Below are positions 11,934 through 32,894 of a stretch of DNA of 64,000 bases, piece by piece. Position 1 is the stretch's first letter; every line of letters begins with the position of its first letter. The DNA comes from a virus. The notes beneath the pieces were generated by a model, which was not told where the DNA came from, ran no database searches, and saw only the letters and a list, made by a program, of their open reading frames with translations. The stretch lies in the IMG/VR virus record IMGVR_UViG_3300032334_001128, positions 1-64,000 of that record; one strand, 5' to 3'. Both the position numbers and the translations under genes were made by a program.

Positions 11934-12092
11934 ACTAAATAGAACTAAATTTGTTTAGGATTTATTCCCCGAATTAGAAATAAATTTTAATCGTGATCTG
12001 ATCTAGCTCCGGCCGGTGTCCGGTAATTTGGATCTAACTTGGATCTGATTCCGAGCTCTGCCGACACGCCGAAATTTATTTCCCGAATGGAC

Positions 12093-12122
12093 TTGCCAAA
12101 TGTCGTGGGGTTGCTATAAACT
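12093..12122 (+). promoter_or_regulatory. sigmaA-type promoter
   Basis: TTGCCA-18-TAAACT, with ACACGCC upstream. Confidence 0.65.
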
Positions 12123-12159
12123 GGCAAGGTAAATGATTCCCGACTGAAAGGAAACTAAA

Positions 12160-12678
12160 ATGGGAATGGATGTCTATGGTAAGAACCCTGCTAACGAAGT
12201 AGGGTCATACTTTCGTAGGAATGTTTGGGGCTGGCGACCACTCTGGGATTACTGCCTAAATGTTCATAACGAAATTGCTGGTGCTGTTGAGTATGGACAC
12301 TCTAACGATGGCGATGGACTGGATGGAACTGCTAGCGTAGAACTTGCTAACGCTATTCTCTCTGCTATTGCCGATGGAACTGCTCAGGATTACATTACTC
12401 AGCGAAACACTTATCTCGCTAATCTGCCGAGATTAGACTGCGACCTTTGTGCTGGAACTGGAATCAGGGCTGACGAAGTTGGCGTTGAGAATGGAATGCC
12501 TGAAAGGGAACTTTCTGCCGAGATGGCAATTCTCTTAGGCAGAACTAAGGGCTGGTGTAATTCTTGTAATGGCGAAGGCAAGAAAGAATCTTGGGATACT
12601 AACTACGATTTGGAACTTGACGACCTGAAAGAGTTTGCCGAGTTCTTGCTAAATTGTGGTGGCTTTGAGATTTGCTAA
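12160..12678 (+). CDS. conserved phage protein with DnaJ-like CxxCxGxG zinc motifs
   Basis: MGMDVYG...YFRRNVWGWRPLW; CDLCAGTG and CNSCNGEG. Confidence 0.75.
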   Translation: MGMDVYGKNPANEVGSYFRRNVWGWRPLWDYCLNVHNEIAGAVEYGHSNDGDGLDGTASVELANAILSAIADGTAQDYITQRNTYLANLPRLDCDLCAGTGIRADEVGVENGMPERELSAEMAILLGRTKGWCNSCNGEGKKESWDTNYDLELDDLKEFAEFLLNCGGFEIC

Positions 12679-12696
12679 TCTAATCGCCTAACGCTT

Positions 12697-12734
12697 ACAC
12701 GCCTGACCCGAAAGGGTTGGGCGTGTTTGCTTTT
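12697..12734 (+). terminator. intrinsic terminator
   Basis: ACACGCCTGACCC-GAAA-GGGTTGGGCGTGT plus T tract. Confidence 0.7.
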
Positions 12735-12922
12735 ACATGATCTAAACTGCCGAGCTCCGAATGCCGGCCGGCCAGGTGAATAGTTCCCGCGGTAAATAAA
12801 TTGGATCACTGCGGCTGAGATCTAGCTTGTGCCGAGAGATCTCTGAACACGCTCTAAATAAACTTGTGCGAATTATCTAATAGGACTAAACTGATTACAC
12901 GCCTAACGAAAGGAAATCAAAA

Positions 12923-13270
12923 ATGGCGATTACTAAAACTGAAACTACACTTATCGGCTGGTGTGCTGTTGATAGTGGACAAATCCTAATCACTGACCCT
13001 AGTTATCTTGCCGACTGGAGAGATAACGAAATGGGCGACACTGGCAAGGGCGACTATTCTTGGTCTGGTGCTTGTGCGACAACCTTGACTGACGAAAGGG
13101 CTGGGCAACTAAACTTTCTTGCTGGACACTCTGGGGCTGGTGTAGTTTCTAGCACGGGTCTTGGAGATGGTTTCTATCCTGTTATGGCTACTTATGTAGA
13201 TGACGACACTTGGGGTAAGCGTGTTTCTAAGTTGGAGATTATCTTTATTCAGGATGGAGAACTGGACTAA
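12923..13270 (+). CDS. DUF4241-like protein
   Basis: VDSGQILITDP...STGLGDGFYPV motif; promoter TTGTGC-17-TAAACT at 12864-12892. Confidence 0.6.
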   Translation: MAITKTETTLIGWCAVDSGQILITDPSYLADWRDNEMGDTGKGDYSWSGACATTLTDERAGQLNFLAGHSGAGVVSSTGLGDGFYPVMATYVDDDTWGKRVSKLEIIFIQDGELD

Positions 13271-13452
13271 TGGCGAAAGAGACTTACACGGTTGAACTTA
13301 GACAAATCTACGAGGTTACGGTTGAGGAGGGCCAAGACTGGACCGAAGCCTTAGATGAGAGTCTGCGGACTTACTACAAAACCGGTGTTGAGACTGATGA
13401 CGTGACTATGCTCCATAGTGCGTTTGAAGTGCTGGAAGTAACTGGAAGTTAA
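13270..13452 (+). CDS. hypothetical protein
   Basis: TAATG coupling. Confidence 0.65.
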   Translation: MAKETYTVELRQIYEVTVEEGQDWTEALDESLRTYYKTGVETDDVTMLHSAFEVLEVTGS

Positions 13453-13554
13453 TCGATAGGGCTAGGTTATCGCGATGCGATTGCCTAGCTCTTTCGGATC
13501 GATCTCTGAAACTTGCAGCTTATAAAAGTGGATCTAAACACGCCATAAATAAAG

Positions 13555-13584
13555 TTGCCAAATGTCTGCGGTGTCCTATAAACT
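13555..13584 (+). promoter_or_regulatory. sigmaA-type promoter
   Basis: TTGCCA-18-TAAACT, with ACACGCC upstream. Confidence 0.65.
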
Positions 13585-13610
13585 GGACTTATCTATCCCG
13601 AAAGGAAACT

Positions 13611-14093
13611 ATGTCTATCTTAGATATTGTTATTGTTCTACCGCTTGCCTATCTTGCGGTTGTTGCCATTCCCCTAATCGTTACTGACGCTAGGGTTCAT
13701 CGCCTACCTAACAAGTATGTGTTGCCGTTCATTCTTGTTTCATTCCTAACTACTATTGCGGTTGCGATTATTAGTGCCGATTGGATTAGGTTTGTAATCA
13801 CCTTTGGTGTTGCGGTTGCTACTTTGCTTATTGGTATCTATCTCAATGGTAGGGATATCTTGGGTATGGGCGATGTGAAACTATTTGTCGGTATCGTTCT
13901 TGCTCTAGGTTCATTCTCTCTGTGGTTTGCTCTTATTGCTATTGCGGTTGGCTTTGTAGTTTCAGTTGCGGTTACTCTAGTTAGAATGTTTGTAGTCAAG
14001 TCTGTAAGTATGTATGGGACTACAACTATTCCACTTGGCGTATTCACTATCTCAGCAACTTTGGTTACTGGGTTAGTTGCGGTTGTAATCTAA
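13611..14093 (+). CDS. A24-family prepilin peptidase-like membrane protein
   Basis: several TM helices; catalytic-type D in TDARVHRLPNK and GMGDVKL motif. Confidence 0.8.
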   Translation: MSILDIVIVLPLAYLAVVAIPLIVTDARVHRLPNKYVLPFILVSFLTTIAVAIISADWIRFVITFGVAVATLLIGIYLNGRDILGMGDVKLFVGIVLALGSFSLWFALIAIAVGFVVSVAVTLVRMFVVKSVSMYGTTTIPLGVFTISATLVTGLVAVVI

Positions 14094-14254
14094 CTCAGTA
14101 GAGTGTGACCCCTGAGCATAGCTCGGGGGTTTCACTTTATCCGGAGTGCCGGTTAGGATCAGCCACGTGAAAGATCTCTGGCGTGTTTGTAGCTTGGTAG
14201 TTGCGAACTCTGCCGATAAGTGCTAACTTTGTATTACCTAGAAAGGAAACTCAA

Positions 14255-14530
14255 ATGAAGTTTAGAGAAGCATTAGGTTCTGTTATTCAGGAATACCGAT
14301 ACAACAATAATCTAACCCTGCGTCAAATGTCGGGTGGTGGTTCTGGGCGTATCTCAACAACTTACCTTTGGGAGTTGGAGAACTCACGCAAGGAAGCAAG
14401 TAGCGAAATGCTTACGGAAGTTGCCGAGTGTATGAGCATTACAACTGCCGAATTGGTTATTCGTGTTGGGTTCTTTATGGGGGGTATCCCTGATTATGTG
14501 CCACAAGATTTGCTAGAACTCACCAGATAA
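14255..14530 (+). CDS. XRE-family HTH regulator, ClgR-like
   Basis: REALGSV...TLRQMS...YLWELENSRKEASSEML resembles actinobacterial ClgR; promoter TTGCGA-17-TAACTT at 14201-14229. Confidence 0.75.
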   Translation: MKFREALGSVIQEYRYNNNLTLRQMSGGGSGRISTTYLWELENSRKEASSEMLTEVAECMSITTAELVIRVGFFMGGIPDYVPQDLLELTR

Positions 14531-14629
14531 TTTGGGTGAGCTTCTAGATCTGTTCATGCCGGACTGATCTGGTTGCGGCCACCTGATTAATCCGGATCTA
14601 AAACACGCGGAAAATTATCTTGCCAATTG

Positions 14630-14655
14630 GGAATAATTTGTCGTAAGGTGCGGTT
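14630..14655 (+). promoter_or_regulatory. sigmaR/sigmaH-type promoter
   Basis: GGAAT-N18-GTT. Confidence 0.65.
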
Positions 14656-14686
14656 ATAATTTATGTAGACACGGAAAGGAAAACTA

Positions 14687-14878
14687 ATGTCTAATAAATC
14701 ATTCGAAACTCTATCTGAAACTGAAGTGCTAGAACTTATCCCTAGAACATTCTCGGCACTTGACCACGCTAGTGAAATTGGAAGTGTTCGGGACATTGTG
14801 ATTATGAAAATGGGTTTGGAGAAACTCATTGATAGACTGATTGAGTTGCTACTCACCACCGATGGAAAGGAAAACTAA
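14687..14878 (+). CDS. hypothetical protein
   Basis: GGAAAGGAAA RBS. Confidence 0.7.
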   Translation: MSNKSFETLSETEVLELIPRTFSALDHASEIGSVRDIVIMKMGLEKLIDRLIELLLTTDGKEN

Positions 14879-15018
14879 TGAACTGCGAAAACTGCGAAAC
14901 TGCACGTGGAACTATTCATTACCAAATTCGTAAAGATAAGTATCTCTATCTCTGCCTAACTTGCTATGAAGTGTTGGAAGAATACATCGCTTTGCGAAGA
15001 GCTCTACGCGGTAAATAA
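14878..15018 (+). CDS. small CxxC...CxxC protein (46 aa)
   Basis: GGAAAGGAAA RBS; TAATG overlap. Confidence 0.6.
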   Translation: MNCENCETARGTIHYQIRKDKYLYLCLTCYEVLEEYIALRRALRGK

Positions 15019-15096
15019 TTCTGACTGCGGCCACCCGGTGCAGCTGCATGGATCCGTCACCCGGTAACGATCAATGAAGCTAGGATCTGAAATCGG

Positions 15097-15122
15097 GGAA
15101 TAATTACGGTGAAATGTCGGTT
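15097..15122 (+). promoter_or_regulatory. sigmaR/sigmaH-type promoter
   Basis: GGAAT-N18-GTT upstream of the second ClgR-like gene. Confidence 0.65.
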
Positions 15123-15158
15123 CTATTTAGTATGATGGAAGTTATGGAAAGGACTGAA

Positions 15159-15404
15159 ATGATAACTGGTGAATTGTCTCAACTAATCGGGGAAGTTCTA
15201 CGGGAACTTAGATTAGAGAAGAATCTAAAACTTAGACAACTAAGTTCGGCTAGTGGTGTTGCTCTCGGCTACCTAAGTGAAGTGGAGCGTGCCGTCAAAG
15301 ACATCTCTTCTAAAATGCTGACCAAGATTCTAATCGCATTAGACATCTCTCTTTATGAATTTCTAATTCTTGTTGCCGAAAAAGAAAAAAATAAAACTCT
15401 CTAA
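15159..15404 (+). CDS. XRE-family HTH regulator, ClgR-like
   Basis: IGEVLRELR...LRQLSSASGVALGYLSEVER; GAAAGGA RBS. Confidence 0.75.
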   Translation: MITGELSQLIGEVLRELRLEKNLKLRQLSSASGVALGYLSEVERAVKDISSKMLTKILIALDISLYEFLILVAEKEKNKTL

Positions 15405-15465
15405 ATGTTGCTATTTGGAAGTCATAAGTAGTAAGCTATCTATACGCCAATGAAAGGAAAATAAA

Positions 15466-15735
15466 ATGGCACTCACAAAAGCTCACAAGGTAAGTATCGA
15501 AAGACAAGTTCGAGCAGAATACACCGAACAAATCAGCAAGCTAAATGACCACTCTCTATTCCACATGGTCAAGGGCTTAGACGCTAAGGGCAACAGCGTA
15601 GAGGGCAGACTAAAGACCTCTGCCATGAAGTACGGGTTCGAAGTTGGAATCCAAATTGCTACTGAAGTTCTGGAATCTCGTGGCCATGAAATGGTAGAGT
15701 TCCAAGCTATGTTCTTTATGTGTGAGCACCTATAA
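15466..15735 (+). CDS. hypothetical protein
   Basis: promoter TTGCTA-18-TAAGCT at 15408-15437; GAAAGGAAA RBS. Confidence 0.7.
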   Translation: MALTKAHKVSIERQVRAEYTEQISKLNDHSLFHMVKGLDAKGNSVEGRLKTSAMKYGFEVGIQIATEVLESRGHEMVEFQAMFFMCEHL

Positions 15736-15784
15736 ACTAGGTACCACTGATCTATAGGCACACCGGAAATTATTTGCAAAACGC

Positions 15785-15810
15785 GGAATAAATGTTGCGG
15801 TTTGTCGGTT
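15785..15810 (+). promoter_or_regulatory. sigmaR/sigmaH-type promoter
   Basis: GGAAT-N18-GTT. Confidence 0.6.
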
Positions 15811-15849
15811 GTAAATAGTAGGATTTAGTTAGTCAAGGAAAGGACTAAA

Positions 15850-16071
15850 ATGCTCACTCAACTACCGCTAAACGAAGACAAGACTCTATTTGCTTCTGTC
15901 GAAATGCCTGAACTACTATCTCAGTTTGTATCTGCTAACTCAGGGCGTAAGGGTAAAGTAATCTCTCTATCAACTAAACTAACCAAGTCTGGTTATGGCG
16001 TATTGGTTATTGAGTTTATCCCTAAGGGTCAAACTAAAAGTCAATGGGCAACTATTAGCCCTGTTGCCTAA
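15850..16071 (+). CDS. hypothetical protein, paralog of 17799-18038
   Basis: shared LPLN...GRxG...TKxGYG...QWAxxSPxA. Confidence 0.7.
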   Translation: MLTQLPLNEDKTLFASVEMPELLSQFVSANSGRKGKVISLSTKLTKSGYGVLVIEFIPKGQTKSQWATISPVA

Positions 16072-16336
16072 TCCCTAATCCCCGCCGAGTGTCGGACACA
16101 CTCACAAAATCCCTCGGGCGCGCACACAGCTCGGGGGATTTTTTTATGCGGAGAGATCTCTGCGGCCACGTTCCTGGAGCTGCACCGGATCTTGCTGCAC
16201 CTGGTGGATCCCGGAGCTTCGCCGGTGATGGATCTAAAACACGCCAAAAAATTATTTGCTATTTGGGAATAATTTAGGGTATTTTCGTGTAGTATTTATG
16301 TAGCAACATAAACCAACTAATAATGAAAGGTATCAA

Positions 16337-16555
16337 ATGAAGACATTTTTTCTTCGTGCTTTGGTTCTAGTCCCGATTACTGCTATTGCTTACCTATCTC
16401 AAAAAATCTCAGGTATGTATCTACAAAGTTGGGTTCTAAACAGCGTGGATGATGACCTAGTTATGTATTCCCGTTGGGAAGTAATTTCTTGGGTGTTCAT
16501 CGGGCTTACCCTAATTGGACTAATCTGGGCTATGGTTGCTCCCGATAAAGATTAG
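16337..16555 (+). CDS. two-TM membrane protein
   Basis: two hydrophobic segments; GAAAGG RBS. Confidence 0.7.
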   Translation: MKTFFLRALVLVPITAIAYLSQKISGMYLQSWVLNSVDDDLVMYSRWEVISWVFIGLTLIGLIWAMVAPDKD

Positions 16556-16570
16556 GTTTTCTCTCTAATG

Positions 16571-16603
16571 CTAAACCCCCGCGCTTGCGGGGGTTTAGTT
16601 TTT
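16571..16603. terminator. bidirectional terminator between convergent genes
   Basis: CTAAACCCCCGC-GCTT-GCGGGGGTTTAG plus T tract. Confidence 0.75.
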
Positions 16604-16627
16604 AGCTGAGAGATCTCTGGAATGAGT

Positions 16628-16831
16628 TTATAGTTTCATTCCATACTTACGGAGATACTGGCGAATGTATTTGATGGCACGGAAATCACTAGGCGAACTC
16701 GCTGAGTGAAAAAATCTGCCATCTGGCGAAGTCCAACGAATGTGACCTGACTTGGTTGCTTCTATTTGCCAACCTTGCTTAGTTGCTTTTTTGATTAGAG
16801 CCATAACATCTTTGTTTGTGGAGAGTGCCAT
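16628..16831 (-). CDS. HicA-like (dsRBD-fold) mRNA interferase/toxin
   Basis: MALSTNKDVMALIKKATKQGWQIEATKSGHIRW...SSPSDFRAIK; AGAAAGG RBS on the minus strand. Confidence 0.7.
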   Translation of the reverse strand: MALSTNKDVMALIKKATKQGWQIEATKSGHIRWTSPDGRFFHSASSPSDFRAIKYIRQYLRKYGMKL

Positions 16832-17005
16832 TTGGCAACCTTTCTTTTGTGGTAATACCACTTTACACCTCACCCGTGACATTTTGCCAAATTAGACACG
16901 CTGAAGCTTCTAGAGATCTCTGCGGCCACGTTCCTCCGGATCTTCGAGCTCCGGTCACGTGATTAATTTGGATCTAAAACACGCCAAAAAATTATTTGCA
17001 AATCG

Positions 17006-17031
17006 GGAATAATTTGTCGTAAGTTCGTGTT
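17006..17031 (+). promoter_or_regulatory. sigmaR/sigmaH-type promoter
   Basis: GGAAT-N18-GTT. Confidence 0.65.
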
Positions 17032-17076
17032 ATCTTATTTGTAGCAACAAAAAACAATCTCTAGGAAAGGTTCTAA

Positions 17077-17196
17077 ATGAGTGTTCACATCTGCGAAATC
17101 TGCGATAACCCTGTTGAGTTCCAATGGTGCGTTGAGTGTGGTGAAACTGTTTGCGTAATCTGCCACAACGCTTACGGCTGTCCAGAAAACTATTAG
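17077..17196 (+). CDS. 39-aa Cys-rich zinc-finger peptide
   Basis: GGAAAGG RBS; CEIC, CVEC and CVIC motifs. Confidence 0.65.
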   Translation: MSVHICEICDNPVEFQWCVECGETVCVICHNAYGCPENY

Positions 17197-17205
17197 GAGA
17201 AAATA

Positions 17206-17445
17206 ATGTCCAACACCACTAACTTTGCGTTTGAAGAAGTAATGCGTATGGCAGGGGGGCGAGATGTGTATTCATCTTCTACCCTTGCCATGATCTATGA
17301 AGAATGCGAGACCAACCGGCAAATCCAAGAACTTGCCGGTTGTCATCTTGTCGTAGCTTCTCCGGAGAAATCTCAGGAATACCTGACACGCTTGCGTTCT
17401 ACTCTGAAACTGGTATTCTTTACTCGTAGTGATTATACAAATTAG
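17206..17445 (+). CDS. hypothetical protein
   Basis: AGGAG RBS. Confidence 0.7.
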   Translation: MSNTTNFAFEEVMRMAGGRDVYSSSTLAMIYEECETNRQIQELAGCHLVVASPEKSQEYLTRLRSTLKLVFFTRSDYTN

Positions 17446-17458
17446 GAAAGGAACTAAA

Positions 17459-17587
17459 ATGTGCGAATGCGAAGATAGACCTTGCTGCGGTTGTCTTGCT
17501 GAGAGCGACATCTACGGAAGATACGAGCCAGACCCAATTGACGCTGAGCGTGCGCGTTTGGAAATGGATTACGACTACGAAGATTAG
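17459..17587 (+). CDS. 42-aa peptide with CEDxPCCG motif
   Basis: GGAAAGGAA RBS; MCECEDRPCCGC. Confidence 0.65.
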   Translation: MCECEDRPCCGCLAESDIYGRYEPDPIDAERARLEMDYDYED

Positions 17588-17604
17588 GCTGCCGGCCGGT
17601 CTAC

Positions 17605-17638
17605 CTAAACCCCTCGCATCGCGGGGGGTTTAGTTTTA
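17605..17638 (+). terminator. intrinsic terminator
   Basis: CTAAACCCCTCGC/GCGGGGGGTTTAG. Confidence 0.7.
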
Positions 17639-17730: not shown

Positions 17731-17770
17731 GGAATAAATGTTGCCAAATGTCGGTTCTATACTATAGACT
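17731..17770 (+). promoter_or_regulatory. overlapping sigmaR/H-type and sigmaA-type promoters
   Basis: GGAAT(17731)-N18-GTT overlapping TTGCCA(17741)-18-TAGACT. Confidence 0.7.
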
Positions 17771-17798: not shown

Positions 17799-18038
17799 AT
17801 GGCAGGACAAACCACACTACTACCACTAAACACCGAACGCTCTAAGTTTGCCGAAGTTGCTATGCCAACACTAGGCGACACTTACATTACCCCTAATGGT
17901 AGAACTGGCATCGTTGTTGAAATGGTGGTCAAGATGACTAAGGGTGGCTACGGAACTTTGAACATCTGCTTTGAAACCATTGATGCCGAAACTGGCGACA
18001 TTGATGTTCAATGGGCTTGCGTAAGTCCAATGGCTTAG
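17799..18038 (+). CDS. hypothetical protein, paralog of 15850-16071
   Basis: AACGAAAGGAAA RBS before ATG 17799. Confidence 0.7.
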   Translation: MAGQTTLLPLNTERSKFAEVAMPTLGDTYITPNGRTGIVVEMVVKMTKGGYGTLNICFETIDAETGDIDVQWACVSPMA

Positions 18039-18460: not shown

Positions 18461-18652
18461 TCGGGGGGCAAACTGATCCATAGACTGAGCTGGCCGGTGA
18501 GCTGAGCTAGCTGATCAGTTGCAGCTAAGATCACCAGGGATCTGATCAGGATCTATGAGCTGCCGGATGTTACAGACACTCCGGAATAGATTTGACTTTT
18601 CCGGTGTGTAGTGTATTCTTATAGTATTCCCGGAAAGGAAAGGAGGGGGCTT

Positions 18653-18709: not shown

Positions 18710-18790
18710 TTCTAGCCCCCGGTGCAAGCCGGGGGTTTTTACTTACCGGCCGGAGCTTCACAGATCTCTAGAAAATATTTTTATATTTCG

Positions 18791-18816
18791 GGAATAAATG
18801 GATTAGGCTAATGGTT
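18791..18816 (+). promoter_or_regulatory. sigmaR/sigmaH-type promoter
   Basis: GGAAT-N18-GTT. Confidence 0.65.
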
Positions 18817-18860: not shown

Positions 18861-19127
18861 ATGAACATCACGCCAGAGAAGTATGCCGAAATGGTAATCG
18901 CAAAGTTTTACAAGGTTGAGAACATCTACAACTTGACTAGGGCTATTGCCAGAGTTGCCGACAAGTATGCCAAGTGGGTTATGGAAGCCAGTAACAGACT
19001 TACTTGGGCAACTGACGGAACTGACGAACACGCTAAACAAAATGAACTTGCTCAAAAAGAAGCACTGGTCAAGTGTGAAGCGTATCGCCTAGCGTTATTT
19101 ATGCTCACCGATAAACTCCCTAAGTGA
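18861..19127 (+). CDS. hypothetical protein
   Basis: GAAAGG RBS. Confidence 0.7.
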   Translation: MNITPEKYAEMVIAKFYKVENIYNLTRAIARVADKYAKWVMEASNRLTWATDGTDEHAKQNELAQKEALVKCEAYRLALFMLTDKLPK

Positions 19128-19291: not shown

Positions 19292-19486
19292 ATGGCAATG
19301 TTCGATGTAAAAATCCAAGTCAATTACTCAGGTCAAATCGAAGCAAGTTCGGCAGAAGAAGCCGAGCAACTTGCTTGGTCTGCTTACTACGGAGATGACG
19401 CAACGCTAGAATACGATGGCGTTGAAAGTATCGAAGTTGAAGAAGCCGAAGAAGAAGAAGAAGAAGAAGAAGAAGAAGAAGAATAA
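19292..19486 (+). CDS. acidic protein with a poly-Glu tail encoded by (GAA)12
   Basis: promoter TTGCAC-18-TAAACT at 19235-19264; GGAAAGGAG RBS. Confidence 0.75.
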   Translation: MAMFDVKIQVNYSGQIEASSAEEAEQLAWSAYYGDDATLEYDGVESIEVEEAEEEEEEEEEEEE

Positions 19487-19905: not shown

Positions 19906-19931
19906 GGAATAAATAACTTGTAATGTCAGTT
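19906..19931 (+). promoter_or_regulatory. sigmaR/sigmaH-type promoter
   Basis: GGAAT-N18-GTT. Confidence 0.65.
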
Positions 19932-19974: not shown

Positions 19975-20226
19975 ATGGAAGAACGCCTAAATAACTTACT
20001 TGCTAAGTTCGAAATTGCTCGCCTAGACCAAGTTGGTATTCTTGCTCGCATGGAAGGACTTGCTGTTGAAATCCGTAATGCCGAAGCAGATGAAGAATAC
20101 CTAACTAAGTTAGTAGCAGACTTGGACAACATGTTGACAAGATTGAAGAGCAACAAAAAACTTATGCTCGAAGTGATTGAAGGTATGGATTCAATCCAAA
20201 GAGAACTAAATCAGGAGGAAGAATAA
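19975..20226 (+). CDS. coiled-coil hypothetical protein
   Basis: AAAGGAAA RBS; heptad-like pattern. Confidence 0.7.
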   Translation: MEERLNNLLAKFEIARLDQVGILARMEGLAVEIRNAEADEEYLTKLVADLDNMLTRLKSNKKLMLEVIEGMDSIQRELNQEEE

Positions 20227-20462
20227 ATGGCTACTTATGAAGAAGCTCCGATTAGTAAATGTACCGAGTGTAATGACTTGCCACTGATCTGTCGAATGAA
20301 ACTACACTCACTAGATCGATGGTATTACGCTTGGTCATGGCCGGGTGTGTACTGGGTATTCAAGAAGCTTCACCGATCGGTGTGTAAAAACACGCCAAAA
20401 TAAATGTTGCCAAATGTCGCAACTGGGGTATAAACTGGACTTACTCGGGAAAGGAGTAAAAA

Positions 20463-23047: not shown

Positions 23048-23238
23048 TGGAAACTTGCGTATTGTGTGTTGAGAAAAGACACAAAATCTATTGGGGCGAA
23101 ATGTCTGAAAAAGATATGGAACTATCCGGAGTCACTTATCACAAGTGTTCATTCTGTTCATACGAACCTCTAATTTGGAATACCGGTATTGGAGATGCTA
23201 GTTGCGAGAGTTGTGGCAAATGGCAGAACGAGAGTTAG
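23047..23238 (+). CDS. zinc-ribbon protein
   Basis: three CxxC motifs; TAATG coupling. Confidence 0.65.
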   Translation: METCVLCVEKRHKIYWGEMSEKDMELSGVTYHKCSFCSYEPLIWNTGIGDASCESCGKWQNES

Positions 23239-23251
23239 GGGAGAGACTCTA

Positions 23252-23368
23252 ATGGCCGATCAATGTGAACACGAGAACCTAAAACACGCTGATAGTTCGG
23301 CTCACTTAGCTTTCTGCCCGGACTGCGACCTAGAGTTTTTTTGTGAATGTGAAAATCCGGATTCGTAA
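23252..23368 (+). CDS. 38-aa Cys/His peptide
   Basis: GGGAG RBS; CEH...CPDC. Confidence 0.5.
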   Translation: MADQCEHENLKHADSSAHLAFCPDCDLEFFCECENPDS

Positions 23369-25157: not shown

Positions 25158-25183
25158 GGAATAAATCTAAGAAGTAATCAGTT
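25158..25183 (+). promoter_or_regulatory. sigmaR/sigmaH-type promoter
   Basis: GGAAT-N18-GTT. Confidence 0.65.
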
Positions 25184-25205: not shown

Positions 25206-25409
25206 ATGTTTATAGAGCAACCCAGAGATGCCGAAATGGCAGAACTATTTGCGTTAGGTCTAATCAAAGAGCCTAAGGAAGAACCAAGACTAATCCTTGT
25301 TCCTTGTAAGCACCCGAAGTGGTGTAAGACACACGGGACTACACGGATTAGGTTTAGAATCCTGAAAAATAGAATCAAAAGAATTCTAAAATTTGGGAAT
25401 AAATCCTAA
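25206..25409 (+). CDS. basic hypothetical protein
   Basis: GGAAAGGA RBS before ATG 25206. Confidence 0.6.
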   Translation: MFIEQPRDAEMAELFALGLIKEPKEEPRLILVPCKHPKWCKTHGTTRIRFRILKNRIKRILKFGNKS

Positions 25410-25421
25410 ACAAATCTAGTT
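25396..25421 (+). promoter_or_regulatory. sigmaR/sigmaH-type promoter
   Basis: GGAAT-N18-GTT; nearly identical to the minus-strand promoter near 11943-11968. Confidence 0.7.
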
Positions 25422-25443: not shown

Positions 25444-25605
25444 ATGACTAATCAAATCCCAGACCCAGACCAGAACCCGTTACTGAAATCACCACGCCTA
25501 AACCTAGAAACAGGTGAAGGGCGTAGAAGTTTCTTAGAGTGGTTATTTGACCCCGAAGTTGATAAAGCCTTTGAGCAGGCTTTCCCGTTAGAAGAAGGAG
25601 AGTGA
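25444..25605 (+). CDS. 53-aa protein, paralog of 11775-11933
   Basis: GAAAGGAAA RBS; MTNQIPDPDQNPLL...WLFDPEVD. Confidence 0.75.
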   Translation: MTNQIPDPDQNPLLKSPRLNLETGEGRRSFLEWLFDPEVDKAFEQAFPLEEGE

Positions 25606-25607
25606 GA

Positions 25608-25772
25608 GTGAGAGCAAGAGTGAAGCTAACACCTGAACAGATCACTGAGTTGGATAAGTTCCAGACACGGAAGCTCTATGAGTTTGTCTATCTAGGGATG
25701 GCCGCCGGTATTATCCCCTTTGTCCCTAACCTAAGACTTAGCCGGATGGTGAGGAAGCTAAAACAGATCTAA
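25608..25772 (+). CDS. small hypothetical protein
   Basis: GTG start after GGAG; 54 aa. Confidence 0.45.
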   Translation: MRARVKLTPEQITELDKFQTRKLYEFVYLGMAAGIIPFVPNLRLSRMVRKLKQI

Positions 25773-27185: not shown

Positions 27186-27304
27186 TGACTAAAAGAGAAC
27201 TAACACCTGAGCAAGCTAAGGCCAAGCGTGCTGATGAGATTGCTTGCCGAGTATCTCTAAGCTTGTTTGTAATCTTTATGCTTATCCAAGTATTTACTAG
27301 ATAA
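27185..27304 (+). CDS. 39-aa membrane peptide
   Basis: TAATG coupling; C-terminal hydrophobic helix. Confidence 0.5.
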   Translation: MTKRELTPEQAKAKRADEIACRVSLSLFVIFMLIQVFTR

Positions 27305-27333
27305 AAACGGATCCAAATTTATTTCTAATTTCG

Positions 27334-27359
27334 GGAATAAATCTGTTAGAGTTTGAGTT
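27334..27359 (+). promoter_or_regulatory. sigmaR/sigmaH-type promoter
   Basis: GGAAT-N18-GTT. Confidence 0.65.
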
Positions 27360-27381
27360 GTTATTACTGAAAGGAATAAAA

Positions 27382-27906
27382 ATGACCAACTATGAAAAGT
27401 CTTATGACGAAGCCAAAACTAAGAAGTTCACCAAGCCTGAACTTTGGAGTGAAATCTTACCTAACCTATGGCTAGGTGGAACTGACGATAATGACCGAGT
27501 TGGTGATAAGCATTGCGAGTTTGATAGACAAGACATCTCTATCAAGCCACGACACTTTGATAGTGTCTATACCTTTTATGCTCACGCTAATCCTGTTGAT
27601 TGGCTAGTGAAAGAGTTTAGATACGGCTACTTTGATAGTGCTGATACTGACTTTGATAAGTCAGCGTTTATGCGTATCGCTTACAACATCTTTACTGATT
27701 GGAAGTCTGGCGATAAAGTGTTGGTGCGTTGCCAAGCAGGTCTAAATAGGTCTGGCTTACTTATGGCGATAGTGCTAATGCTTGACGGCTACGAAATCCA
27801 AGAAGCGATTGACCTTATGCGTGAGAAGCGACACGAACTAGTGCTGTTCAACCCTAACTTTGTTGAGTGGTTGAGAAACCTAGACATTACCAACCCTAGT
27901 TGGTAG
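27382..27906 (+). CDS. dual-specificity protein phosphatase (Cx5R)
   Basis: VLVRCQAGLNRSG P-loop; ILPNLWLGG. Confidence 0.85.
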   Translation: MTNYEKSYDEAKTKKFTKPELWSEILPNLWLGGTDDNDRVGDKHCEFDRQDISIKPRHFDSVYTFYAHANPVDWLVKEFRYGYFDSADTDFDKSAFMRIAYNIFTDWKSGDKVLVRCQAGLNRSGLLMAIVLMLDGYEIQEAIDLMREKRHELVLFNPNFVEWLRNLDITNPSW

Positions 27907-28067
27907 TGTCTAGGGTTGAGGCCGAAGCTTGGAGATCACTAGATAAGATCACACCGGGCCGGCCGGGGGATCCAATTGGATCTACAAACACGCTAATAAA
28001 TAGAGTTGCGAATTATTTGTTTGTGTGGTTAGATTGACTTATTCCCGATTAGAAAAGGAGAAATAAA

Positions 28068-28298
28068 ATGGGAAAGAAGAAACTAGATACTTGGGCGTGG
28101 TTTGTTGCTCAGTATGAAAGTCAGGGCTACAAGTCTCTAAATCAGTTCGCAATCGCAACGGGCTTACAGAAGTCTAGCCTGAGTAGGTATTTCCACAATC
28201 AGCGACACATTCCGTCAAACACACTTGCTACGCTCTGCCGAGAGTTGCGTGTCTCACCTTACGAGTTGCTAACTGCTATTGGTGAGAAAGTTTCATAA
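28068..28298 (+). CDS. XRE-family HTH protein
   Basis: SLNQFAIATGLQKSSLSRYF...PSxxTLxxLCxxL; promoter TTGCGA-18-TAGATT at 28006-28035. Confidence 0.75.
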   Translation: MGKKKLDTWAWFVAQYESQGYKSLNQFAIATGLQKSSLSRYFHNQRHIPSNTLATLCRELRVSPYELLTAIGEKVS

Positions 28299-28382
28299 GC
28301 CAATCTCATAGAAAGAGATAACACCTGAGCAAGTGTTCTAAACTGCTCACTTACCGATAGACTTACAACATAAGGAGTTCTA

Positions 28383-28487
28383 ATGAAAAAGAAGCTTGCT
28401 AAAAGTTTGCTAAGTCTTAGTGGTGCTCTAATGGGTATTGCTCATAGATTATCTTGGACTGCTCATAACCTAAACACTAAAAAATAA
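28383..28487 (+). CDS. 34-aa basic peptide
   Basis: AAGGAG RBS. Confidence 0.45.
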   Translation: MKKKLAKSLLSLSGALMGIAHRLSWTAHNLNTKK

Positions 28488-28500
28488 AGGAACAGATCTA

Positions 28501-28629
28501 ATGACTGATAAAAATAAATCTAAGCTAGCTAAAAAAGAAAGCTGGTCTTGTATGCTGTGTGGAGCTACTACAACGGATCCAACACAAGCTCTAATCACTT
28601 ATTTCCACTGGCCTTGCCCTAAAAGGTAA
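28501..28629 (+). CDS. 42-aa Cys/His peptide
   Basis: AAAGGAA RBS; CMLC...HWPC. Confidence 0.5.
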   Translation: MTDKNKSKLAKKESWSCMLCGATTTDPTQALITYFHWPCPKR

Positions 28630-28712
28630 TAAAAGAAACACCGAATAAATACTTGTGTATTTGTTCCCTTGTGGTATAAACTGGACTTATCTCTCGGAAA
28701 GGAGATTAGGAA

Positions 28713-28916
28713 ATGAAGTTCTTTGTTCGTAGATTACTTGCTGGTGTTGTTATCGTTCCACTTACGGCAGTTGCTTATGTTCTTGTCTGTGCTTTGCTTA
28801 TCGGTCTTGGTGCTGGGCAGAATGAATCGGTTGCTGGGTATTTCGGTATTGGTCTATGGTTTGGTGTAGGCTTGACCTTAGTGTTTGCTTTTGACGCTCT
28901 TAGGAAGGTGAAGTAA
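28713..28916 (+). CDS. two-TM membrane protein
   Basis: promoter TTGTGT-18-TAAACT at 28653-28682; hydrophobic helices. Confidence 0.7.
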   Translation: MKFFVRRLLAGVVIVPLTAVAYVLVCALLIGLGAGQNESVAGYFGIGLWFGVGLTLVFAFDALRKVK

Positions 28917-29101
28917 TGAAGTTCTTGTTGATGTTCTTGGCTGTCTGGTCTATTGTTGCTGGTATTTATTATGGTGAAGTAGAAGGACACTTTGTATCCT
29001 TGATGATTGGTCTATCTCTTGGTGCTTTACTGATGTTTGGTGCTTTGGTTCTTGCGATTAGTGAGTTGCCACGATTCATTAGGCGTAGGAATAGACGCTA
29101 A
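28916..29101 (+). CDS. two-TM membrane protein with basic tail
   Basis: TAATG coupling; terminator at 29114-29145. Confidence 0.7.
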   Translation: MKFLLMFLAVWSIVAGIYYGEVEGHFVSLMIGLSLGALLMFGALVLAISELPRFIRRRNRR

Positions 29102-29162
29102 CCTGTTTTACTAAACACCCCTAGGAAACTAGGGGTGTTTTTTATAGTGGTATCCTTGACTT

Positions 29163-29315
29163 ATGATCGAAATAATTATTTATATTCTTTTAGCTATAAC
29201 TGGGCTGTTTATTTTTTACATAGCTGCCCTGCTACCTATAGCTAAGCTCATCTACACATACGGAGAGTCTAAAGACGATTGGTATTCGCATTATGAGGAA
29301 GAAGCATTAGATTGA
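29163..29315 (+). CDS. small membrane protein
   Basis: 50 aa with an N-terminal TM helix. Confidence 0.5.
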   Translation: MIEIIIYILLAITGLFIFYIAALLPIAKLIYTYGESKDDWYSHYEEEALD

Positions 29316-29475
29316 TGGAGATTGCTGGTTTAGTATTGATCCTTGTATTCCTGGCCGGATTGACTGCCGGGATCTCATATTTGATCTTGTTCGTGTATGC
29401 TAATCGAGTGATCCGGAATAATGATCCGGATCCACAAACTCTACTCGGAGTAGTATCTCCGAAGAAAGAAGACTA

Positions 29476-29637
29476 ATGTCTAGTTGGCTTATTCGTTTGC
29501 GTGATCTAGTTTGGCCGGCGATCATCTCTGTGATCCTGGTATCTGCTTCTGTGATCGTTGCGTTCTTTGCTCCACCTATCGCCGTAGTTCTAGGACTCGG
29601 TGGTATCTCATTCGCTCTATTAGCTCAGCGTGCTTAG
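29476..29637 (+). CDS. two-TM membrane peptide (possible holin-like)
   Basis: 53 aa, two hydrophobic segments, upstream of a PG-binding protein. Confidence 0.55.
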   Translation: MSSWLIRLRDLVWPAIISVILVSASVIVAFFAPPIAVVLGLGGISFALLAQRA

Positions 29638-29658
29638 CTGAGAGATTGGTAATAAATT

Positions 29659-30225
29659 ATGTCAAGTAAGAAATCAAATGGATCTGATGATCTAGATCCG
29701 ATCGTAGATCAAGATCAGGATCTAGAAGTTGATCAGATTGTAGATCCGGAGCCGATCGTTGATCAGGATCCGATCGTAGATCCGGTTGTTGATCAGGATC
29801 CGGTTGTTGATCAGGTTGTAGATCCGATCGTAGATCCGGAGCCGATCGTTGTAGCCCCGATCATTGAGATCACTGATGGTGGAATGATCCCGATCCCTTC
29901 TCGCCCGATCGTTCCTCAGGAAGTAACTCCGGCTGGCCCGGCTGTTGTTGGGTTTGGAGTCTTTGATGAAGTGTTCCTGGACAAGTGTATCTACAAGAAT
30001 GTATACAATCGTAAGTCGCTAACGATCCACCACTTACAACGGAGATTGTATGAGCTAGGGTACATCGTAGCTCTAAAGGACAAGGATGGGTATTACGGGG
30101 ATCTAACTAGATCAGCTGTAGCTCAGTTCCAGGCAGATCGTAATCTAGCTGGGGATGGCCTTATGACTGCTGAAGCCTTTGAGCTCATCTTTGCTAACGA
30201 TCCGAATGTGAAAGTCGTTCTATAG
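29659..30225 (+). CDS. peptidoglycan-binding domain protein with a GATC-encoded D/P/V/Q low-complexity N-terminus
   Basis: IHHLQRRLYELGY...DGYYGDLTRSAVAQFQ...DGLM PG_binding_1 pattern. Confidence 0.75.
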   Translation: MSSKKSNGSDDLDPIVDQDQDLEVDQIVDPEPIVDQDPIVDPVVDQDPVVDQVVDPIVDPEPIVVAPIIEITDGGMIPIPSRPIVPQEVTPAGPAVVGFGVFDEVFLDKCIYKNVYNRKSLTIHHLQRRLYELGYIVALKDKDGYYGDLTRSAVAQFQADRNLAGDGLMTAEAFELIFANDPNVKVVL

Positions 30226-30324
30226 ATCGTTGTTCGCTGTTGAGAGATGCCAATCTGTTATACGGGTTGGCATTTCTCGTTATTATCCTGTAATGTTGGG
30301 AAAAGACAAGACAAAGGAGAAATT

Positions 30325-30903
30325 ATGTCTAATTATGTAAAGCAGAACCACGAACTACCTAGTGAAGTGCTAGATAGTGCCAAATCTATTCCATCTCGGG
30401 ATAAGCAGACTAGAAACGCTTATGTAAAGGCTCTAAGAGAGCAAGGGTGGACATTTGAGAGCATTAGCGTAGCATTTGGTATGACTAGGGAGAGAGTTCG
30501 TCAAATTGCCATTATGGAGAGCAATACGGACATTGTGAAGGACTATCCACTACCTTTACCACCATTGGCTCCCGAAGTAGTGAAAGTGAAGCGTGAGCTC
30601 ATCTTGCCTAGCGACAAGGTGCTTAGTCGCTTACTAGAACTACAACCACTAGCACAACAGGTGCGTTCCAATAGCAAGAAGTATCGTAGTGAAGCAGAAG
30701 AATACTCACACTTACTAAATCACGCTATCGAAGTAGAAGGTGTATCAACTTATCGGTTAGCCAAACTACTAGGTATCACTCACGGGGCTATTCGTTTCCG
30801 TCTTGCTAGATACGGCTATAAGCCTGAAACGGCAGGTAAGAGTTCTGTTTACTCTGCTATTCTGGATAAGAATAGAGTGGGTATCACTACCACCATTGAG
30901 TAA
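30325..30903 (+). CDS. double-HTH DNA-binding protein, possible terminase small subunit
   Basis: sigma70-r4-like WTFESISVAFGMTRERVRQI and a second HTH STYRLAKLLGITHGAIRFRL; immediately upstream of TerL. Confidence 0.6.
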   Translation: MSNYVKQNHELPSEVLDSAKSIPSRDKQTRNAYVKALREQGWTFESISVAFGMTRERVRQIAIMESNTDIVKDYPLPLPPLAPEVVKVKRELILPSDKVLSRLLELQPLAQQVRSNSKKYRSEAEEYSHLLNHAIEVEGVSTYRLAKLLGITHGAIRFRLARYGYKPETAGKSSVYSAILDKNRVGITTTIE

Positions 30904-30915
30904 TTAGGAGTGTAA

Positions 30916-32325
30916 GTGGCTAAATCACTTATGGAACAGATCGCTTTACTACCACCTGAAGAACAAGCAAGAGTATTAGCTGGAATGGATCCGGAGACTC
31001 TTATGTGGGACTGGTCTGCTTGGGGTAGACCTGAGCAACAAGCTCCCGTAGGTGATTGGAACATCTGGGCTTACATCGCTGGTCGTGGTGCTGGTAAGAC
31101 TAGGACTGCTGCTGAGTGGGTTCGTGAAGAAGCGAAATACACTACAACAGGACAACGACGCTTTGCTTTGGTAGCAAGAACAGCAGCCGATGTACGAGAT
31201 GTGATCGTAGAAGGTGAGTCAGGAATTATGAATGTGACTCCCCCTAGTGAAAGGCCACTATACGAACCATCTAAGCGTAGGTTGACCTGGCCTAACGGAA
31301 ATGTCGCTACTTGCTTTACAGCAGACGAACCAGACTCTCTCCGTGGACCTCAGTTCACTCACGCCTGGGGAGATGAGATTGCTGCCTGGCGACAGACACC
31401 AGACGCAGCTGGTATGACTGCTTTTGATAACTTGCGTGTTGGAACTCGTCTTGGTGCTACTCCTAAGATTATGGTCACTACCACACCGAAGCGTGTTCCA
31501 CTTTTGTATAAGTTGATCGAAGAAGCGAAGACAGGTCGAGTAGTGATCACTCGTGGATCTACTATGGATAACTCGGGGAACCTATCTGTTGCTTATCTAG
31601 ACGCTATTACTGGTGTTTATGCTGGAACTCGCCTAGCTCAGCAAGAAATCTATGGTGAGATGCTAGACAGCGTAGAAGGTGCTTTGTGGACAGAAGAACT
31701 GATTGAGCAACATAGACAAGGTGCTATGCCATTAGGGACTCCACTAAGAGTGATCGGTGTTGACCCTAGCGTTGCTGAGAACCCTAGAGATGAATGTGGG
31801 ATCGTTGTATGTGCTTCTACCTCTGAGCGTGATCTGTATAAGCGACACGCTTGGGTATTAGAAGACGCTAGCGTTCACGGATCTCCGGATGTTTGGGCTA
31901 ACAAGGTTGTTGAGATGGCTCGTAAGTGGGGATGTCCTGTAGTAGCTGAAGTAAACCAAGGTGGAGCATTGGTAAAGAATGCGATCCACACTATCGATCC
32001 AAACATTACTGTATTAGAAGTTCATTCTAAGTATGGTAAAGCTCTTAGAGCTGAACCTGTTACATTGGCTTATGAGCAGGGTAGAGTTCACCATTTAGGT
32101 TATCTCGGATCCTTAGAGAGCCAGATGTATTCCTGGATCCCTGGAGAAGGTAAATCTCCCGATCGTGTTGACGCATTAGTTCACGCTCTCACTGCTCTAA
32201 TGATCAAGCCTCCGTCTGGCTTTACTGGGGGAAAGATTACAGCTCGATCCGTGGCCGGAAGAAAGATCCCTAATGTTCGTGGTAATGACGCAACTGGATC
32301 TAGGGGAATCTTTAGAGTTAGATAA
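30916..32325 (+). CDS. terL: terminase large subunit
   Basis: AGRGAGKT Walker A, SLRGPQ, WGDE Walker B, GVDP RNase H-like nuclease, SPDRVDA. Confidence 0.93.
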   Translation: MAKSLMEQIALLPPEEQARVLAGMDPETLMWDWSAWGRPEQQAPVGDWNIWAYIAGRGAGKTRTAAEWVREEAKYTTTGQRRFALVARTAADVRDVIVEGESGIMNVTPPSERPLYEPSKRRLTWPNGNVATCFTADEPDSLRGPQFTHAWGDEIAAWRQTPDAAGMTAFDNLRVGTRLGATPKIMVTTTPKRVPLLYKLIEEAKTGRVVITRGSTMDNSGNLSVAYLDAITGVYAGTRLAQQEIYGEMLDSVEGALWTEELIEQHRQGAMPLGTPLRVIGVDPSVAENPRDECGIVVCASTSERDLYKRHAWVLEDASVHGSPDVWANKVVEMARKWGCPVVAEVNQGGALVKNAIHTIDPNITVLEVHSKYGKALRAEPVTLAYEQGRVHHLGYLGSLESQMYSWIPGEGKSPDRVDALVHALTALMIKPPSGFTGGKITARSVAGRKIPNVRGNDATGSRGIFRVR

Positions 32326-32332
32326 TTATTTG

Positions 32333-32358
32333 GGAATAAATCCCTTGCTTTGTCGGTT
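32333..32358 (+). promoter_or_regulatory. sigmaR/sigmaH-type promoter
   Basis: GGAAT-N18-GTT. Confidence 0.65.
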
Positions 32359-32401
32359 GTATGTAGTAGAGTGTAATCAACTACTACGAAAGGCTCTAAC
32401 T

Positions 32402-32527
32402 ATGGACGCTTCTAACCTTTACTATGGCGACGAAACCCTAGACGATTGTACCCGTGAAGAATACGACGCTTGGGTAAATCGTCCTGAAGTTTGGGACGAC
32501 AACTGGGACAAGAAGGAAACTGACTAA
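32402..32527 (+). CDS. 41-aa acidic peptide
   Basis: ACGAAAGG RBS before ATG 32402. Confidence 0.6.
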   Translation: MDASNLYYGDETLDDCTREEYDAWVNRPEVWDDNWDKKETD

Positions 32528-32751
32528 TGGCAACTACTAACCCTTACACCAACTACTCGGCCGAAGCTTTGGGCTATGCTCTGGAAGCAGCAAATCGCAA
32601 GGTATCACTTGGCGACACTAGCGAAGACTTGCTCACTATGATTGAGCAGATGGGCGAAGCTTTAGAACAGAAGCAGGGGACGGATAGGTGCCAACACGGC
32701 GTCTATCTTTATGGTGATGTGTCCCCGTCTTGTTGGGAATGTGAAGCCTAG
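32527..32751 (+). CDS. hypothetical protein
   Basis: TAATG coupling; terminator at 32762-32800. Confidence 0.7.
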   Translation: MATTNPYTNYSAEALGYALEAANRKVSLGDTSEDLLTMIEQMGEALEQKQGTDRCQHGVYLYGDVSPSCWECEA

Positions 32752-32868
32752 TAATCTCTTAATAAATAATCCCTTATCAAGCTGGTAAGGGATTATTTAT
32801 TATGCTGATCGGTTGCTTCTATGATCATTACCAGGCTAAAAATAGATCCAAAATAAATAAAAAATCTG

Positions 32869-32894
32869 GGAATAAATACCTTGCCTGATTGGTT
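32869..32894 (+). promoter_or_regulatory. sigmaR/sigmaH-type promoter
   Basis: GGAAT-N18-GTT. Confidence 0.65.

Follow-up and report, generated by a model that had tools for sequence, protein, structure and literature searches.

Thirteen copies of the element GGAAT-N18-GTT, located in the first half of the genome of an uncultured 126-kb freshwater actinophage related to DSL-LC01, are probably phage promoters dependent on a host ECF sigma factor of the SigH type, some of them overlapping sigmaA promoters. That half, 64,000 nucleotides long, is referred to below as the window. From its sequence we infer which sigma factor reads the elements, where transcription starts and what the arrangement means physiologically.

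Motif occurrence and consensus

The window contains 14 exact matches to GGAAT-N18-GTT against 1.9 expected (100 shuffles gave a mean of 1.87, sd 1.34 and a maximum of 6; 14 was reached in 0/100). Thirteen of the 14 form one family with the consensus (G)GGAATAAWT-N14-GTT-nT-N6-T-R, and the fourteenth (34674-34699, minus strand), which does not carry the extended motif, is probably a chance match. Among GGAAN pentamers combined with spacers of 16-20 nt, enrichment is confined to GGAAT with N18 (13 forward copies), the other combinations giving 0-8. When the whole 126-kb genome was scanned, zero additional copies were found outside the window; an exact-pattern scan of IMG/VR returned only single, chance-level matches per contig, and nucleotide searches of the phage collection gave no match. 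The 12 plus-strand GGAAT coordinates and the minus-strand copy at 11943-11968 listed in the earlier note were all exact on recount. Its two near-misses fared differently: the site at 16266-16291 (plus strand; overlapping TTGCTA-N18-TATTTT and followed by gene 16337-16555) is a family member in which GTA replaces GTT, whereas the site at 18583 (GGAAT-N18-GTG) has no extended box and sits on a sigmaA-like promoter, TTGACT-16-TATTCT. The element also contains a weak inverted repeat, TAAAT...ATTTA; a dimeric operator was judged an unlikely reading of it, because the half-sites are about 2.5 helical turns apart.

Promoter copies and associated genes

As the earlier note had it, the copies lie just upstream of cassette genes, at 22-45 nt from the start codon. 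These start codons carry a strong GAAAGGA-type ribosome-binding site, one copy abutting a leaderless ATG instead. The leaderless copy is on the minus strand (GGAAT at 11968, GTT ending at 11943), and its predicted +1 (11933) coincides with the A of the start ATG in a 52-aa gene at 11775-11933 (minus strand), whose mRNA is thus predicted to be leaderless if that start holds. The gene is a paralogue of 25444-25605 (70% amino acid identity) and is under purifying selection, since pN between the two is 0.185 and pS 0.86. All other copies of the family, with the genes that follow them, are on the plus strand. Three copies have short leaders. The first (25158-25183) precedes gene 25206-25409, with the ribosome-binding site from approximately motif position 36 and the ATG 22 nt past GTT; the second (25396-25421), which is identical to the minus-strand copy in 25 of 26 bases, precedes genes 25444-25605 and 25608-25772; the third (27334-27359) is upstream of a dual-specificity phosphatase gene at 27382-27906 (Pfam DSPc, 44 bits; phrog_10650). 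Another copy, at 15097-15122 with its predicted +1 at 15132, is upstream of gene 15159-15404, which encodes an 81-aa XRE/HTH_3 protein. The top NCBIfam match of this protein is ClgR (59.6 bits, under the equivalog cut-off), and it shows 45-49% identity to ClgR-like proteins of the candidate host clade. The suggestion that the gene set includes a ClgR mimic and the phosphatase is supported, as the motif precedes both the phosphatase gene and a genuine ClgR homologue.

Copies of the GGAATAATTTGTCG subfamily are found at 14630-14655 (overlapping a sigmaA-like TTGCCA-N18-TAAGGT from 14620; genes 14687-14878 and 14878-15018) and at 17006-17031 (overlapping TTGCAA-N18-TAAGTT; genes 17077-17587, then a terminator at 17605-17633). 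The copy at 17731-17756, ahead of gene 17799-18038, does overlap a sigmaA-like promoter (TTGCCA-18-TAGACT, 17741-17770), as had been claimed. The remaining copies are at 15785-15810 (gene 15850-16071), 18791-18816 (behind a terminator at 18714-18737; genes 18861-19127 and 19292-19486), 19906-19931 (genes 19975-20226 and 20227-20403), 32333-32358 (8 nt past the end of terL, 30916-32325; genes 32402-32527 and 32527-32751) and 32869-32894 (gene 32937-33284).

Site profile and predicted transcription start

A profile was built from 49 non-redundant sites of four phages, selected by GGAATAA alone. The GGAAT block is present in 13/13 window copies and, being itself part of the selection, in 49/49 profile sites; it is followed by A, and position 0 is G in 40/49. 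GTT occurs at exactly N18, the SigH/SigR class having a spacing of 18 (17-19) nt, with G24 in 47/49, T25 in 48/49 and T26 in 46/49 (94-98%). The bases after GTT read (A/G)(T)(A/T), fitting (g/a)(a/t)(a/t) in 37/49, 48/49 and 42/49 sites, and T28 is found in 44/49. Farther downstream, T35 and a purine at position 36 are each present in 46/49. The C. glutamicum sigmaH consensus consists of gGGAAta and GTT(g/a)(a/t)(a/t) (PMC4105308, PMC10012870), and the profile matches it in both blocks. The identification of GGAAT-N18-GTT with the SigH/SigR consensus, made in the earlier note, agrees in this way with the published core and, save for one position, with the extended consensus (PMC10012870, PMC4105308). 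At that position, the base preceding GTT, the phage sites have mostly G or A, and C or T in only 11/49, whereas the published consensus has C/T.

The T of GGAAT is -31 in SigH promoter numbering (PMC10012870), and the predicted +1 is therefore motif position 36, so that the conserved T-purine pair falls exactly at -1/+1 of the SigH geometry. Motif position 36 is where the ribosome-binding site begins in the three short-leader copies; in the minus-strand copy, exactly motif positions 36-38 are taken up by the ATG belonging to the gene under purifying selection. Neither the short-leader copies nor the leaderless copy leave room for a downstream sigmaA -10.

SigmaA-type promoters of the same phage and its relatives

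A second and more numerous promoter family, of the ordinary sigmaA type (TTGCSA-N18-TAAACT), is interleaved with the GGAAT family; in sites anchored on the -35 side only, TAnnCT is present at N18 in 8/8. Similar GGAAT arrays occur in the related lineages G006, G009 and G010, and other relatives have housekeeping-type promoter arrays in place of the GGAAT array; the motif is patchy in its distribution among relatives. Cultured relatives with no such array include the Microbacterium phages Cece, A3Wally and Pumpernickel and the Gordonia phages GMA2 and GodonK.

The strongest competing explanation, which we regard as unlikely, is that the copies are housekeeping sigmaA promoters. The true -10 would be a TAnnnT beside or downstream of GTT, GGAATAAAT would be an upstream or -35-region element that serves as an aid to binding or as an activator site, and GTT would be left over from the TGT-TATAAT extended -10 of relatives. 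About half of the GGAAT copies do overlap a sigmaA-like -35/-10 pair: TTGnnn-N16-18-TAnnnT is found in 6-7 copies, with its -10 at motif positions 35-40, and three copies of the GGAATAATTTGTCG subfamily show TTGCNA-N18-TAAGKT. For the 6-7 copies, the refuting case named in the earlier note (starts set by sigmaA -10 boxes, with GGAATAAAT as an upstream element) may hold. The backbone AATAAATG-TTGCCA-AATGTCG is common to the GGAAT family and the sigmaA-type family of the phage. Relatives point the same way, as DSL-LC01 carries at least 17 copies of a sigmaA-type TGTTATAAT promoter, TGTTATAAT or TGATATAAT arrays occupy the same genome region in DSL-LC01 and other relatives, and GTT in G009 and G010 often runs into TGTTATAGT, which is frequent there and readable as an extended -10; in view of the DSL-LC01 array, GTT could therefore be an extended -10 remnant. 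Against this, the -10 zone of the 49 sites has no near-invariant A (A27 in 26/49, A29 in 24/49), unlike GTT at 94-98%, and the TTG elements are variable in position and missing from five copies. Taken overall, the GGAAT family does not show TAnnnT with a near-invariant A at -11 and T at -7 at 16-18 nt past TTGnnn. GGAATAA stands at the -35 position and is unlike TTGACA. With a downstream -10, transcripts from the three short-leader copies and from the leaderless copy would begin within or past the ribosome-binding site or ATG. Judged by sequence, the GGAAT family and the sigmaA-type promoters of the phage are separate groups.

Search for a phage-encoded sigma factor

No match to PF04542 or TIGR02937 was obtained in a six-frame search of the phage, and PF08281 gave one weak match (12.9 bits), in a two-HTH protein encoded at 30247-30903. 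Comparison of 52 early proteins with Pfam and PHROGs yielded no sigma factor or RNA polymerase, and the domains of the giant proteins were limited to ArdC-N, MPTase-PolyVal and Tc-38. Neither a sigma factor nor an RNA polymerase could be detected in the phage; a very divergent factor could escape these searches. The ECF sigma factor of the phage's own that the earlier note had entertained was accordingly absent from both the six-frame searches and the family scans. The two-HTH protein, with its weak Sigma70_r4 matches, was rejected as a phage specificity factor because it has homologues in many motif-free relatives and is classed by PHROGs as an HTH DNA-binding protein. A presence/absence screen of G009 and G010 against the motif-free G007 retained 14 open reading frames, of which several are spurious overlaps; the real genes encode the ClgR-like HTH protein, the phosphatase, the two-HTH protein and an NrdH-like glutaredoxin, and no sigma-like or unexplained regulatory candidate was found among the 14. 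A scan for HxxxCxxC, as in an RsrA-like protein, gave one doubtful open frame of 59 aa (23189-23368).

These results bear on a further explanation, rated as improbable, in which an undetectably divergent phage factor (a sigma-like protein or a sigma appropriator, cf. T4 AsiA/MotA and phiEco32 gp36) would steer host RNA polymerase to GGGAATAAAT/GTT, the copies forming a phage-controlled middle class. For many early proteins no family can be recognised, large lytic phages usually have temporal promoter classes, and a patchy motif among relatives would be expected if it co-varied with a phage gene. The six-frame search found no sigma domain, however; the candidate at 30247-30903 is equally present in motif-free relatives, and the genes shared with G009 and G010 and absent from G007 include nothing sigma-like. 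A phage-specific factor would also leave unexplained that the motif is the autoregulatory sigH promoter of the candidate host clade, extended -35 box included.

A primarily non-promoter role, as a protein-binding or recombination repeat for cassette shuffling or repression (e.g. by phage HTH proteins) or as a decoy titrating host SigH, is very improbable: the terminator-element-small gene layout resembles mobile regulatory cassettes, the element has the weak inverted repeat mentioned above, and the spacers of the copies at 25396 and 11968 (minus strand) are identical at 13/14 positions though the genes attached to them have saturated synonymous sites. The element, however, always points the same way as the downstream gene, a fixed short distance from the ribosome-binding site or ATG, and the 49 sites are conserved mainly in two blocks set apart as in a promoter, while the spacers vary.

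SigH promoters of the candidate host clade

Genomes of the candidate host clade were located via the phage prepilin peptidase (33-38% peptidase identity), which points weakly to freshwater Micrococcales as candidate hosts. A SigH-like gene is present in 5/5 MAGs, and the SigH equivalog in 38/41 genomes of their family. The motif lies upstream of sigH at 34/34 loci of the MAGs and the family. GGAAT-N18-GTT is directly upstream of the SigH-like gene in 4/4 MAGs, and in the two nearest by peptidase it reads GGGAATAAAT or GGGAATAATT, like the phage motif; in 30/30 further family genomes one GGAAT-N17/18-GTT is found upstream of sigH, with gTA 7-8 nt past GTT. A zinc-type (ZAS, HxxxCxxC) anti-sigma gene comes right after sigH at 3/4 MAG loci. 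The clgR gene is preceded by the motif in 4/4 MAGs. In genomes of this clade the motif is also found before sufB (twice) and before a Bcp-type peroxiredoxin gene.

Proposed mode of transcription

Under the favoured SigH-type reading, host RNA polymerase carrying an actinobacterial SigH/SigR-type ECF sigma factor would read the 13 elements, with GGAAT at -35 to -31 and GTT at -12 to -10, and transcription would start at the conserved purine 10 nt past GTT. The promoters, placed behind terminators or gene ends, would each drive one to three small genes. Thiol oxidation or heat would free the stress sigma factor from RshA/RsrA, its zinc-type anti-sigma factor; as SigH is normally bound in this way, little activity would be expected of such promoters in unstressed cells, unless infection sets SigH free. 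Because the two promoter families are interleaved or overlapping, early and accessory genes would have two input channels, the housekeeping sigma factor and the stress sigma factor. The wiring to a stress sigma factor put forward in the earlier note is supported in part, by the promoter family, by its position before the ClgR and phosphatase genes and by the match to the host clade; its alternative of an ECF sigma factor of the phage's own found no support. It is quite possible, and is proposed tentatively, that this freshwater actinophage group converted part of its early-promoter array from the housekeeping to the host SigH type and acquired a ClgR homologue, the takeover block being switched on by the thiol-oxidation or heat alarm of the host or by a phage that triggers that alarm. 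If so, these phage genes would in effect report, through their transcription, the redox state of the host in sunlit lake water.

Comparison with known systems

The phage elements resemble those of the SigH (Corynebacterium, Mycobacterium) and SigR (Streptomyces) regulons in the GGAAT-N18-GTT core and in the gGGAAta and GTT(g/a)(a/t)(a/t) blocks, in having a clgR-type gene among the putative targets, and in the occurrence of the same motif ahead of sigH, sufB and a peroxiredoxin gene in the candidate host clade. SigH-only promoters of C. glutamicum are marked by T rather than C at -31 (PMC10012870), and the phage copies carry T at this position. They differ in that 13 near-identical copies are present on a phage genome, before small genes of unassigned function, in the G/A instead of C/T before GTT, and in the overlap of several copies with sigmaA-like promoters. 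Phages phiEco32 and 7-11 have their own ECF-like sigma factor (PMC8948821); phage promoters of ECF-like two-block architecture are common to both cases, but the sigma factor is phage-encoded there, whereas none was detected here and the motif is that of the host-clade SigH promoter.

The layout of the region recalls other large phages. Large lytic phages have strong early-promoter arrays in host-takeover regions, e.g. the terminal-repeat early genes of SPO1, and T4-type phages have promoter-plus-stem-loop cassettes. Here too, many tiny genes with near-identical promoters of their own, often with a terminator hairpin, lie in a plastic region, and the layout recurs, with different promoter sequences, in relatives of the phage. 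The SPO1- and T4-type arrays use the host housekeeping sigma factor, whereas the promoter repeated here has an ECF-type -35/-10. Early transcription of phages is generally described as relying on the host housekeeping sigma factor or on a phage-made polymerase or sigma factor, and a literature search found no published case in which early promoters of a phage depend on a stress ECF sigma factor of the host. If the SigH-type assignment is correct, a lytic phage in which such a factor controls at least a third of the early promoters would represent a different control logic: whether its genes are expressed would depend on the physiology of the host, with no phage regulator involved. As a sequence signature, the motif may help to link uncultured phages to actinobacterial hosts.

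Promoter family and its genes

The window contains 14 exact matches to GGAAT-N18-GTT against 1.87 +/- 1.34 in shuffles, which bears out the array claimed in the earlier note. Among the GGAAN / N16-20 combinations, only GGAAT with N18 is enriched. The match at 34674(-) is probably due to chance. In the 13 copies of the family the motif extends beyond this core: (G)GGAATAAWT follows a stretch rich in A/T, and after 14 variable bases come GTT and nTAtTTA-g-TA. Each copy lies 22-45 nt 5' of a start codon, just upstream of genes as had been proposed. No further copies were found when the rest of the genome was scanned. Two near-misses had also been put forward; 16266 is a true one, with GTA, and 18583 falls outside the family. 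Copies 25396-25421 and 11943-11968(-) are identical at 25/26 bases, spacer included, and their attached paralogous genes are saturated at synonymous sites; near-identity despite such saturation points to gene conversion or to extra constraint on the spacer. The set includes the suggested ClgR mimic, an 81-aa HTH protein behind copy 15097 (best NCBIfam match ClgR; 45-49% identity to host-clade ClgR-like proteins), and the suggested phosphatase, a dual-specificity enzyme gene behind copy 27334. Most of the other cargo has no recognisable family.

Proposed sigma factor assignment

Selection on GGAATAA alone yielded 49 non-redundant sites from this phage and its relatives G006, G009 and G010. Counting the first G of GGAAT as position 1, the sites show G at position 0 (40/49), G at 24 (47/49), T at 25 (48/49), T at 26 (46/49), A at 27 (26/49), T at 28 (44/49), T at 35 (46/49) and a purine at 36 (46/49). 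No near-invariant A, as a sigmaA -10 would require, was found in the -10 zone of these 49 sites. In C. glutamicum, promoters used by SigH alone read GGAAt / GTT, and the T of GGAAT sits at -31 (PMC10012870), so the +1 of the phage family is predicted at position 36, which coincides exactly with the conserved T-purine step. The layout of the genes fits this placement: the ribosome-binding site begins at about position 36 in copies 25158, 25396 and 27334, and positions 36-38 of the minus-strand copy are the ATG of a 52-aa gene, for which a leaderless mRNA is thus predicted. This gene is a paralogue of 25444-25605 (70% identity) and is under purifying selection (pN 0.185 vs pS 0.86). On these sequence features an ECF (SigH-type) reading of the family is preferred, and we infer SigH dependence. 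The GTT block could be a descendant of an extended -10 box.

The region of the GGAAT copies also carries about 14-18 promoters of sigmaA type, TTGC(C/G)A-AATGTC-N12-TA(A/G)(A/T)CT, among them those with -35 hexamers starting at 8359, 12093, 13555, 19594, 20407, 21835, 22317, 22774, 24669, 25790, 28006 and 28653. They fit the C. glutamicum sigmaA consensus, TTG(C/G)CA / TANAAT (PMC4105308), and TAnnCT stands at N18 in 8/8 sites anchored on the -35 side only. This family, TAAACT-like in its -10, is larger than the GGAAT family, and a conserved block, GGATCTAAA-CACGCC-aAATAAATG, lies 5' of its members. The two families have a common backbone, AATAAATG-TTGCCA-AATGTCG. TTGnnn-N16-18-TAnnnT also occurs in 6-7 long-leader GGAAT copies, with the -10 at positions 35-40, and the subfamily copies 14630, 16266 and 17006 have TTGCNA just 5' and a -10 within the spacer. 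Dual use is therefore possible for about half of the GGAAT copies.

An ECF sigma of the phage's own, for which a search had been suggested, did not emerge: Sigma70_r2 and a general ECF model gave no match in six frames, and Sigma70_r4_2 gave one, at 12.9 bits. The 52 early proteins scanned matched HTH/XRE, DUF3846, phosphatase and zinc-ribbon families only. Among three giant proteins scanned, one of 4795 aa has ArdC-N, MPTase-PolyVal and Tc-38 domains, with no RNA polymerase domain detected, and the other two have no Pfam family. A 218-aa protein encoded just upstream of terL (30247-30903) has two helix-turn-helix motifs that resemble sigma region 4. It probably serves in packaging as a DNA-binding protein or is of the small-terminase type, and many relatives without the GGAAT motif have it too. 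A 59-aa open frame at 23189-23368, with HLAFCPDC (HxxxCxxC), five cysteines and a listed start without a ribosome-binding site, may encode a small zinc-binding protein.

Candidate host

The phage encodes a family A24 prepilin (type IV leader) peptidase at 13611-14093, whose best genomic relatives (33-38% identity) are found in MAGs, 1.1-1.5 Mb in size, of freshwater Microbacteriaceae, Rhodoluna and Micrococcales. This is a weak lead to a freshwater Micrococcales-type host, and agrees with the terminase affinities. A SigH-like ECF gene is present in 5/5 MAGs of the candidate host clade. A single GGAAT-N18-GTT stands just 5' of it at 4/4 loci examined, two of these promoters being GGGAATAAAT or GGGAATAATT, as in the phage, and an HxxxCxxC anti-sigma gene follows directly 3' at 3 of the 4. 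In further genomes of the same family, one GGAAT-N17/18-GTT precedes sigH in 30/30, with gTA 7-8 nt later. GGGAAT-N18-GTT also lies 5' of a clgR-like gene (4/4 MAGs), sufB (two MAGs), a Bcp-type peroxiredoxin gene, and MMPL, TerC and MFS genes. In one MAG of the candidate host clade, at L261 (G001:C27:11840), an MFS transporter gene has a GGGAATAAAT-N14-GTT promoter 8 nt ahead of its ATG; the transcript is likely leaderless and SigH-type, and the geometry is that of the phage minus-strand copy.

Phage genome and relatives

The IMG/VR record comprises 126,293 bp (about 45% G+C; estimated completeness 94%), of which the window covers bases 1-64000. The large terminase it encodes (30916-32325) shares 77.5% identity with the one from Actinomycetia phage DSL-LC01, a metagenome-assembled phage from a lake (PMC10611076), 61-63% with its counterparts in Microbacterium phages and about 47% with those in Gordonia phages; IMG/VR contains 461 related loci. 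GGAAT-N18-GTT arrays are present in G006 (terL 95% identical) and in the complete 135-kb genomes G009 and G010 (84%). None were found in G007 and G008 (89-90%), DSL-LC01 or the cultured relatives tested, and a literature search found no publication describing phage promoters of this kind. Other relatives have repeated promoters of their own, of TGTTATAAT, TGATATAAT or TTGACT types, so the promoter class turns over between lineages. Lineage-specific repeated early-promoter cassettes were seen at the relatives' loci L014 (DSL-LC01), L152, L194, L200, L207, L144, L146 and L153, the types being ctaaagatGTTATAAT (at least 17 copies), ccTGATATAAT (13-15 copies) and terminator plus TTGACT.

Between 9 and 33 kb, small genes on the plus strand number in the dozens; their ribosome-binding sites are of GAAAGGA type, and terminator hairpins separate them. 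The 4795-aa protein (38657-53044) looks like a polyvalent protein: close to the C-terminus it has ArdC-N and MPTase-PolyVal (zincin) domains, two of each, and it also has a Tc-38 domain. Outside the window, at genome positions 108115-108339 (L011:4115-4339), an NrdH-like glutaredoxin gene lies directly 3' of a class II ribonucleotide reductase gene; the glutaredoxin was looked for in G007 and not found, and its G009 and G010 versions share 80-83% identity with it.
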